NCBI GenBank assembly: GCA_963666485.2
Contig: CAXXUO010000003.1
Location: forward strand, 256,001 to 320,000
Source: Syntrophorhabdaceae bacterium
GTDB lineage: Bacteria > Desulfobacterota > Syntrophorhabdia > Syntrophorhabdales > Syntrophorhabdaceae
DNA length: 64,000 nucleotides
Direction of reading: 5' to 3'
The notes under the pieces: generated by a model
The model's database searches: none
What the model was told of the DNA's origin: nothing
The model's input: only the letters and a program-made list of their open reading frames with translations
Program-made: the position numbers and the translations under genes
Part shown: one piece after another, positions 2,735 to 2,915 of the stretch
Layout of the letters: every line of letters starts with the position of its first letter
Position numbering within the stretch: position 1 is the first letter of the stretch

Positions 2735-2915
2735 TCCCGTGTCCCTTCCTTGTGCAATGCGGGATCTCCTGCGAGTCCCCTGCAACTGTCCGGGTTTATA
2801 AGGAGAAGGTGTGGCGGCCCGAGCTTGGATACGGGATATCATCCCCTGGTTTTTACGGCCTGCCACACCGGCAACCTTTTTCTCTTTTCTATCATGGATT
2901 GTTCGTGATATTCCA
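2735..2915 (-). ncRNA. Putative IS110 bridge RNA with target- and donor-binding loops
   Basis: Stem GGTGTGGCAGGCC/GGCCGCCACACC encloses guides AAAACC and ATCCAAG matching the flanks; a second loop carries ACAGTTGC and ACAAG matching the element ends; boundaries approximate. Confidence 0.75.

Follow-up and report, generated by a model that had tools for sequence, protein, structure and literature searches.

An IS110-group insertion sequence of a Syntrophorhabdaceae bacterium carries a decodable putative bridge RNA and homes to a REP-like host repeat

Nucleotides 1751 through 2933 on the minus strand of a 64,000-nucleotide stretch of Syntrophorhabdaceae DNA (the whole of which we call the window) very likely constitute an intact, recently active insertion sequence (IS) of the IS110 group, which carries a bridge RNA and works by the cycle proposed below. 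Bridge RNAs were described in 2024 and are predicted in most IS110 elements (PMC11208160, in the excerpts used here). Our reference throughout is IS621 of Escherichia coli, an IS110-group element (Durrant et al. 2024, PMC11208160; Hiraizumi et al. 2024, PMC11208158, both in excerpt; structures 8wt6-8wt9). An earlier note on the window had suggested an RNA-programmed recombinase with its own natural target specificity, and this suggestion gains sequence-level support from stems that covary and from guides that change together with the flanks and ends of the elements carrying them. The anatomy of the element, its copies and sites, the covariation of its stems and guides and the homology of its protein are all observed directly. 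Its main parts, in window coordinates, are as follows.

1751..2933, minus strand: the whole IS110-family element, 1183 bp including the CT core at each end; ends set by comparison of copies
2934..2940, minus strand: left target half (LT) of this copy, CCAAAAC; from the five-copy comparison
2932..2933, minus strand: core dinucleotide CT, left copy; the junction string here is CTTG, common to both sides
1751..1752, minus strand: core dinucleotide CT, right copy; by junction comparison
1721..1750, minus strand: right target half TGGAT (1750-1746) with the REP-like palindromic repeat unit that it opens; from the four-copy comparison
1784..2719, minus strand: recombinase gene, 311 amino acids and stop, ATG at 2719-2717; from profile and structure-sequence matches
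2741..2917, minus strand: putative bridge RNA transcript, ~177 nt, both ends estimated
2924..2929, minus strand: TATGAT, -10 half of the junction promoter; from the joined-end sequence
1766..1771, minus strand: TTGACA, -35 half, formed as a promoter only when the ends are joined; from the joined-end sequence

The genome from which the window comes (3.77 Mb in 10 contigs) holds four full copies of the element, which are 100% identical, and one truncated copy of ~412 bp. Identity among the copies stops at 1751 and 2933, and beyond these positions the flanks are unlike and unrelated. Because the flanks differ from copy to copy, the boundaries of the element are fixed independently. Each of the two junctions carries a CT, the empty sites have just one, and the core register was set to CT because relatives such as L013 share only these two bases. 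On the minus strand the left junction reads CCAAAAC(2940-2934)-CT(2933-2932)-TGTAT(2931-2927) and the right junction reads ACAGTTG(1759-1753)-CT(1752-1751)-TGGAT(1750-1746). Both junctions thus agree with the target CCAAAAC-CT-TGGAT and the donor ACAGTTG-CT-TGTAT that had been reconstructed in the earlier note. The left end comprises 212 non-coding nucleotides (2931-2720) and the right end 31 (1783-1753). Read directly, the two end sequences are unlike, and terminal inverted repeats are taken to be absent on the strength of that reading. The four Pfam matches to IS110-type transposase genes in the genome all belong to these copies (4/4). The assembly contains neither a circle junction nor a tandem copy, although assemblies would rarely retain one.

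The truncated copy (locus L005, G000:C4:148764-149178) still has the left end with its putative bridge RNA gene intact, which scores 124 bits with a covariance model built from relatives, while its transposase is lost after ~400 bp and gives way to unrelated, repeat-rich sequence. The genome therefore has five candidate bridge RNA genes for four recombinase genes. The element of the window lies between a 701-amino-acid frame (2983-5088, minus strand), which by its look we take to be an RNase R-type exoribonuclease, and a 506-amino-acid frame (45-1565, plus strand) with a signal-peptide-like start. Neither frame is interrupted.

The protein encoded by the element matches PF01548 (DEDD_Tnp_IS110; 2e-26), PF02371 (Transposase_20; 4.7e-19) and the NCBIfam model NF033542, 'IS110 family RNA-guided transposase', at 239.5 bits against a cut-off of 140. 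Searches of the PDB with phmmer matched residues 6-303 to ISCro4 (9t56; 3.7e-38) and IS621 (8wt6; 1.7e-35), and the ISCro4 transposase, known here by its PDB title and the alignment alone, is thus the best solved relative. Residues D9, E53, D95, D98 and S233-G234 align with D11, E60, D102, D105 and S241-G242 of IS621, which are listed as catalytic in the excerpts of Hiraizumi et al. (PMC11208158). Profiles and alignment agree that a DEDD RuvC-like domain and a Tnp domain with a catalytic serine are both present.

The left flanks of the five copies read CCAAAAC, GCAAAAC, GGAAAAC, GAAAAAC and GAAAAAC, each followed by CT, such that AAAAC-CT stands at five of five left junctions. All four right junctions read CT-TGGATCCCGG, after which a short palindrome and then CCGGGATGACG follow. 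The insertion site consensus is xAAAAC-CT-TGGATCC, at the edge of a REP-like palindromic repeat. A further 27 exact and unoccupied AAAACCTTGGAT sites exist in the same genome, all heading the same REP-like repeat, compared with a chance expectation of ~0.45 for a 12-mer in 2 x 3.77 Mb. Counted more loosely, the repeat has 382 tails in the genome, 109 of them with a recognisable head; among these 109 are 26 perfect free sites and 32 TGGGT variants, and none of the TGGGT variants is occupied. The element therefore targets a single subfamily of a host repeat, just as IS621 has the E. coli REP element as its natural target (PMC11208160, in the excerpts used). For genome annotation, one family of REP-like repeats is thereby explained as IS landing sites. 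The right flank (1566-1750, plus strand) has three clustered REP-like units preceded by approximately nine tandem GGTTCAA repeats, and tandem repeats of the GTTCAA/GTTGAAC type likewise flank the insertions of relatives L012, L015 and L032.

The left end has the arrangement expected for a bridge RNA gene. Reading the minus strand confirmed the positions that the earlier note had given for the stem, the guides and the GGGAT/ATCCC hairpin. The transcript start was placed ~7 nt past the -10 element, and the end was placed past the 3′ strand of the donor-loop stem. The MFE fold of the left end forms two modules, each composed of a stem, an internal loop and an apical hairpin, with the following parts.

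2808..2869, minus strand: target-binding loop module; from the MFE fold and RNAalifold
2848..2855, minus strand: left target guide (LTG) UAAAAACC (DNA letters TAAAAACC), sense to LT and the first core base; unpaired in the MFE fold
2833..2845, minus strand: target-loop apical hairpin, GGGAU 2845-2841 with AUCCC 2837-2833; from the MFE fold and RNAalifold
2822..2830, minus strand: right target guide (RTG) AUCCAAG 2830-2824, followed by handshake CU 2823-2822; reverse complement of CT+TGGAT, unpaired in the MFE fold
2743..2794, minus strand: donor-binding loop module, outer stem CCC 2794-2792 with GGG 2745-2743; from the MFE fold
2782..2789, minus strand: left donor guide (LDG) ACAGUUGC (DNA letters ACAGTTGC), sense to right-end nucleotides 1759-1753 and the first core base
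2761..2779, minus strand: donor-loop apical hairpin, GGGA with UCCC; from the MFE fold and RNAalifold
2747..2759, minus strand: right donor guide in two pieces, CAU 2759-2757 and ACAAG 2753-2749, followed by handshake GA 2748-2747; reverse complement of CT-TGT-ATG

The outer stem of the target module pairs GGTGTGGCAGGCC (2869-2857) with GGCCGCCACACC (2819-2808) on the minus strand, leaving a bulged A at 2861. The earlier note had proposed folding the region 2735-2915 and had counted on single-stranded guides. This holds for the two target guides, which are unpaired in the MFE fold, but not for the whole of the left donor guide, of which UGC (three of its eight bases) pairs with GCA both in the MFE fold and in the RNAalifold prediction, in a helix that offers no compensatory change to judge by. 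The folding energy of the single sequence is ordinary (z = -0.95 and -1.13) and provides no argument either way.

Comparison among relatives is more informative. A search of genomes from the same taxonomic class found matches at E 1e-40 or better in 11 of 96, the genome of the window included, and 24 loci from public genomes served as relatives. A first alignment of whole left ends (A1) clipped the 3′ strand of the donor stem where that strand enters the start codon, and it was re-cut as the final alignment (A2) of 16 distinct left ends. Unguided RNAalifold analysis of A1 recovered both stems of the target module and the donor hairpin (23 pairs, 14 of them compensatory), whereas the outer stem of the donor module was absent from the prediction on this alignment. 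When the 24-pair structure is laid over the 16 relatives, 93.0% of 383 cells can pair, as opposed to 39-51% if the partners are slid by one to three columns; changes on both sides are seen in 17 of 24 pairs, and the observed values were reached in 0 of 500 shuffles. The target outer stem (helix 1) contributes 12 pairs, 10 with compensatory change, with 97.4% of cells paired, and its bulged A (2861, alignment column 17) is invariant (16/16). Compensatory changes are present in three of four pairs of the target hairpin (helix 2), in three of four pairs of the donor outer stem (helix 3; CCC/GGG, CUC/GAG, UCC/GGA, ACUC/GAGU) and in one of four pairs of the donor hairpin (helix 4), in which 96.9% of cells are paired.

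A covariance model made from A2 finds exactly the five copies in the genome of the window. The same model also matches four distant elements that were not in its seed, namely L014 (41.7 bits), L023 (41.0 bits), L020 (26.2 bits) and L029 (22.6 bits), in each case upstream of the element's own transposase gene. A scan with Rfam 15 at E values up to 10 found no family on the minus strand, which is the strand of the proposed RNA. The non-coding region 2741-2917 should be annotated as a candidate RNA gene. The donor stem of the window ends ~24 nt before the recombinase start. In relatives L043, L044, L035 and L036, the 3′ strand of the donor outer stem (GAGC) lies inside GGAGGAGC, just before the GTG or ATG start of the recombinase, and in these elements the folding of the RNA would therefore be in competition with recombinase translation from the same transcript.

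The earlier note had recognised ATCCAAG (2824-2830) as the exact reverse complement of CTTGGAT, ACAAG (2749-2753) as that of CTTGT and nucleotides 2782-2789 as an 8/8 match to the left donor plus C, and all three assignments are borne out. The right target guide fits core and TGGAT at seven of seven positions, and the left donor guide fits the left donor at seven of seven and also the first core base. The left target guide matches five of the seven LT positions and the first core base. The agreement of AAAACC with the left target plus C, also claimed earlier, is thus present, but it stops at the first core base, since the RNA continues with A2847, where a U would be needed for pairing with the second core position. 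This position is also occupied by a nucleotide other than U in four relatives (A in L006, L032 and L033; G in L015), and in the subgroup of the window the second core base is never paired by the left target guide.

Guides and sites change together across the family. AUCCAAG goes with CT-TGGAT in the window, GUUCCAG with CT-GGAAC in L006 and GCCGCAAAG with CT-TTGCGGC in L033, and the donor guide ACAACUG of L035 goes with the right end ACAACTG. These relationships were evaluated with 20,000 permutations per comparison among 12 elements with distinct guides. Elements L006, L015, L016 and L017 were left out, either because a retained row has the same guides or because a flank is missing, and the left guide of L053, which has one extra base before the hairpin, was read one column earlier. 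Over its first five positions the right target (RT) agrees with its cognate RTG at 59 of 60 positions, compared with a mean of 1.25 of 5 for non-cognate guides (0/20,000 permutations). The corresponding values are 59 of 84 against a mean of 2.03 of 7 for LT with LTG (0/20,000) and 84 of 84 against a mean of 6.06 of 7 for the left donor (LD) with LDG (0/20,000). The LD variants ACAACTG, ACAGCTG, ACGGTTG and ACAGTCG are each matched by the left donor guide, such that covariation holds in 12 of 12 elements.

The handshake bases that follow the right guides were compared in 14 elements. In all 14, the target-loop base (C2823 in the window) is able to pair with the final base of the left donor (G), and in only one of them with its own target. 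The donor-loop base (G2748) is able to pair with the final base of the left target in 11 of the 14, and with its own donor in none. The donor-loop handshake base also covaries with its partner, as evident from G with C, from U with A in L033 and from A with T in L013.

Matches to the left target are weaker than those to the right target, and fall to 4/7 in L032 and 1/7 in L036. In the latter element (G094:C30) the right flank fits the right target guide at seven of seven positions, and the left flank instead resembles the element's own left donor half (5/7 by eye). This insertion may be a natural 'half-match' of the kind reported for IS621 in vitro in the excerpts used of preprint 10.64898/2026.08.31.748434. 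A tentative extension, which we regard as possible if doubtful, is that aiming in this clade depends mostly on the right target guide (7-9 nt), the left one being loose, so that ill-fitting left flanks would be records of natural half-matches. If this were true, the family could reveal a natural trade-off in specificity between left and right guides.

When the right end, CT and the left end are joined, the resulting sequence reads TTGACA, a 17-nt spacer and TATGAT. The same promoter geometry (-35 element at -19, -10 element at +4, spacer of 17) is found in 14 of 19 elements and is absent from five elements of gammaproteobacterial type. At the five integrated copies, by comparison, the hexamer that takes the -35 position agrees with TTGACA at one to three of six bases only. 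This difference agrees with the published proposal that the excised circle is the main source of the RNA (PMC11208160, PMC11208158, both in excerpt). One raw DNA run carrying the same species label had no read on the window, and neither did two of three metatranscriptomes; the third had three contigs there, all confined to the REP-like flank (1718-1753), and coverage of the element was zero in all four runs.

By analogy with IS621, from which we carry over transcription, RNA-protein binding, chemistry and programmability, the following cycle can be proposed. Excision as a circle would join the right end (TTGACA) to the left end (TATGAT) across one CT, yielding a sigma-70-type promoter that would drive synthesis of the ~177-nt left-end RNA and then of the recombinase message. 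The RNA would fold into two similar modules, with UAAAAACC and AUCCAAG on opposite sides of the first internal loop. There, UAAAAACC would pair with the bottom strand of AAAAC-C and AUCCAAG with the top strand of CT-TGGAT, at the edge of the host REP-like repeat. In the second module, ACAGUUGC and CAU..ACAAG would pair in like manner with the joined ends ACAGTTG-CT-TGTATG. A tetramer of the DEDD/serine recombinase would hold both duplexes, and strands would be exchanged at the CT core, after which C2823 and G2748, the bases that follow the right guides, would be able to pair with the other duplex.

Other explanations for these patterns deserve consideration. Short matches can arise by chance or as a by-product of low complexity, and AAAACC and ACAAG indeed occur in 17% and 25%, respectively, of 200,000 dinucleotide-preserving shuffles of the 212-nt left end (34,696 and 49,439 shuffles, compared with 7,789 for ATCCAAG and 196 for ACAGTTGC). 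Although these two short motifs alone are unremarkable, all four guide motifs came together in only one of the 200,000 shuffles even when their order was not demanded, and the same alignment columns track different targets in 12 distinct elements. The set of four is not a product of chance, and shuffles and permutations together lead us to reject this explanation at the sequence level, leaving it a negligible probability. A different proposal is that the repeats shared by ends and flanks are subterminal binding sites for a protein on DNA, and that the fold is a 5′ leader regulating translation of the transposase, with no guidance by RNA. In L043 and similar relatives, the 3′ strand of the donor stem overlaps the start codon and ribosome-binding site, which makes a role in translation plausible as well. 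However, all four helices show compensatory changes, which points to selection acting on an RNA fold, and the matching segments vary with the target, which lies outside the element and so cannot be a binding-site repeat of the element. Furthermore, the protein is homologous to those of IS621 and ISCro4, for which RNA guidance has been demonstrated by experiment and structure (in the excerpted sources). We consider this proposal very improbable.

It could also be imagined that the functional RNA is made from the plus strand, as a small RNA resembling sX15 and antisense to the left end. Rfam indeed gives a single match, to sX15 (RF02234; 2758-2878, plus strand; 30.1 bits, E = 0.012), and helices read much alike on both strands. 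This score is far below the gathering score of 55, and the helices contain 10 G-U cells but three A-C cells when read on the transposase strand, which favours that strand. The conserved junction promoter is directed along the transposase strand, on which the order of the guides is also that of IS621 (as given in the excerpts used). We consider a plus-strand RNA very improbable too, and a bridge RNA read along the transposase strand remains by far the better account of the left end. According to the excerpts of PMC3300014 that were available, sX15 is a small RNA of Xanthomonas that is mutually antisense with asX7 on a plasmid and has 10 homologues in a Stenotrophomonas chromosome. This multi-copy pattern resembles that of an IS end, and it may be that sX15 and asX7 represent both strands of a bridge RNA gene of IS110 type.

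The mechanism proposed for this element is already known. It has been in print since 2024, and NCBIfam names the protein family 'IS110 family RNA-guided transposase'. The element is a clear new example that leaves the understanding of the mechanism unchanged. The literature search found no paper joining Syntrophorhabdus with IS110, and this particular element seems to be undescribed in the literature searched, the supplementary tables of PMC11208160 lying outside that search. What it adds is a fully decodable and, judging from its sequence, evidently active bridge-recombinase system from a lineage of anaerobes of the uncultured type, to which, among named records, Syntrophorhabdus MAGs come closest. 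The element is useful raw material for ortholog screens and for guide-design rules, as it provides a natural right target guide of 7 nt, a natural landing site that is defined and present in many copies, and relatives re-aimed from TGGAT to GGAAC.

The re-aimed relatives are L006 (Syntrophorhabdus sp. PtaB.Bin047; G014) and L032 (G021), whose recombinases are 83% and 81% identical to that of the window. Their donor ends are the same (ACAGTTG-CT-TGTATG) and their left-end RNAs are nearly identical to that of the window, whereas GUUCCAG takes the place of AUCCAAG as the right target guide, and CT-GGAAC that of CT-TGGAT at the right flank. We interpret these sequences as a natural re-aiming of the same RNA scaffold. 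The left end of L015/L040 is also nearly that of the window, with its left guide re-tuned to AAGAACC, which matches the flank AGAAC-CT. Its best tblastn segment against the recombinase of the window is 46% identical, one match contains one internal TGA, and the right junction ACAGTTG-TCGTAAAC is without the CT core and the expected right target (CT-TGGAT). L015/L040 is probably a decayed or rearranged copy.

Elements of the IS1111 group have a long right end that carries the RNA and long subterminal inverted repeats (PMC11208160, in the excerpts used). The element of the window does not fit this group, as its right end has only 31 nt and the RNA lies in the left end.

The element shows every sequence-level trait of the IS110 group that was examined, and its resemblance to IS621 is far-reaching, in so far as the excerpts of PMC11208160 and PMC11208158 describe that element. 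Both proteins combine a DEDD RuvC-like domain with a Tnp domain bearing a Ser-Gly loop, and both elements have a long left end and a short right end (here 212 and 31 nt), a CT core and a sigma-70 promoter sequence that is reconstituted when the ends join. In both RNAs a target loop precedes a donor loop, and each loop presents a stem, a left guide, a hairpin and a right guide. The claim of the earlier note that order and polarity follow the IS621 layout proves accurate, as the left target and donor guides are sense and the right ones antisense, core included, which is the arrangement described for the IS621 bridge RNA (PMC11208160, PMC11208158). Likewise shared are a left donor guide of 8 nt (A123-C130 in IS621) followed by A (PMC11208158), a discontiguous right donor guide in two pieces (PMC11208160, PMC11208158), an invariant bulged A in the stem of the target loop, a REP-type repeat as natural target, and handshake bases that pair with the non-cognate and not the cognate duplex, according to the rule given in PMC11208158. 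The two systems differ in that the recombinase of the window is a distant relative (phmmer 1.7e-35), in the target sequence and host repeat family, and in that the new element is known from its sequence alone. They also differ in their target guides, of which the right one here covers the core and five further bases (7 nt), compared with 4 nt in IS621, and the left one pairs with just the first of the two core bases, both of which are covered by the 9-nt left target guide of IS621.
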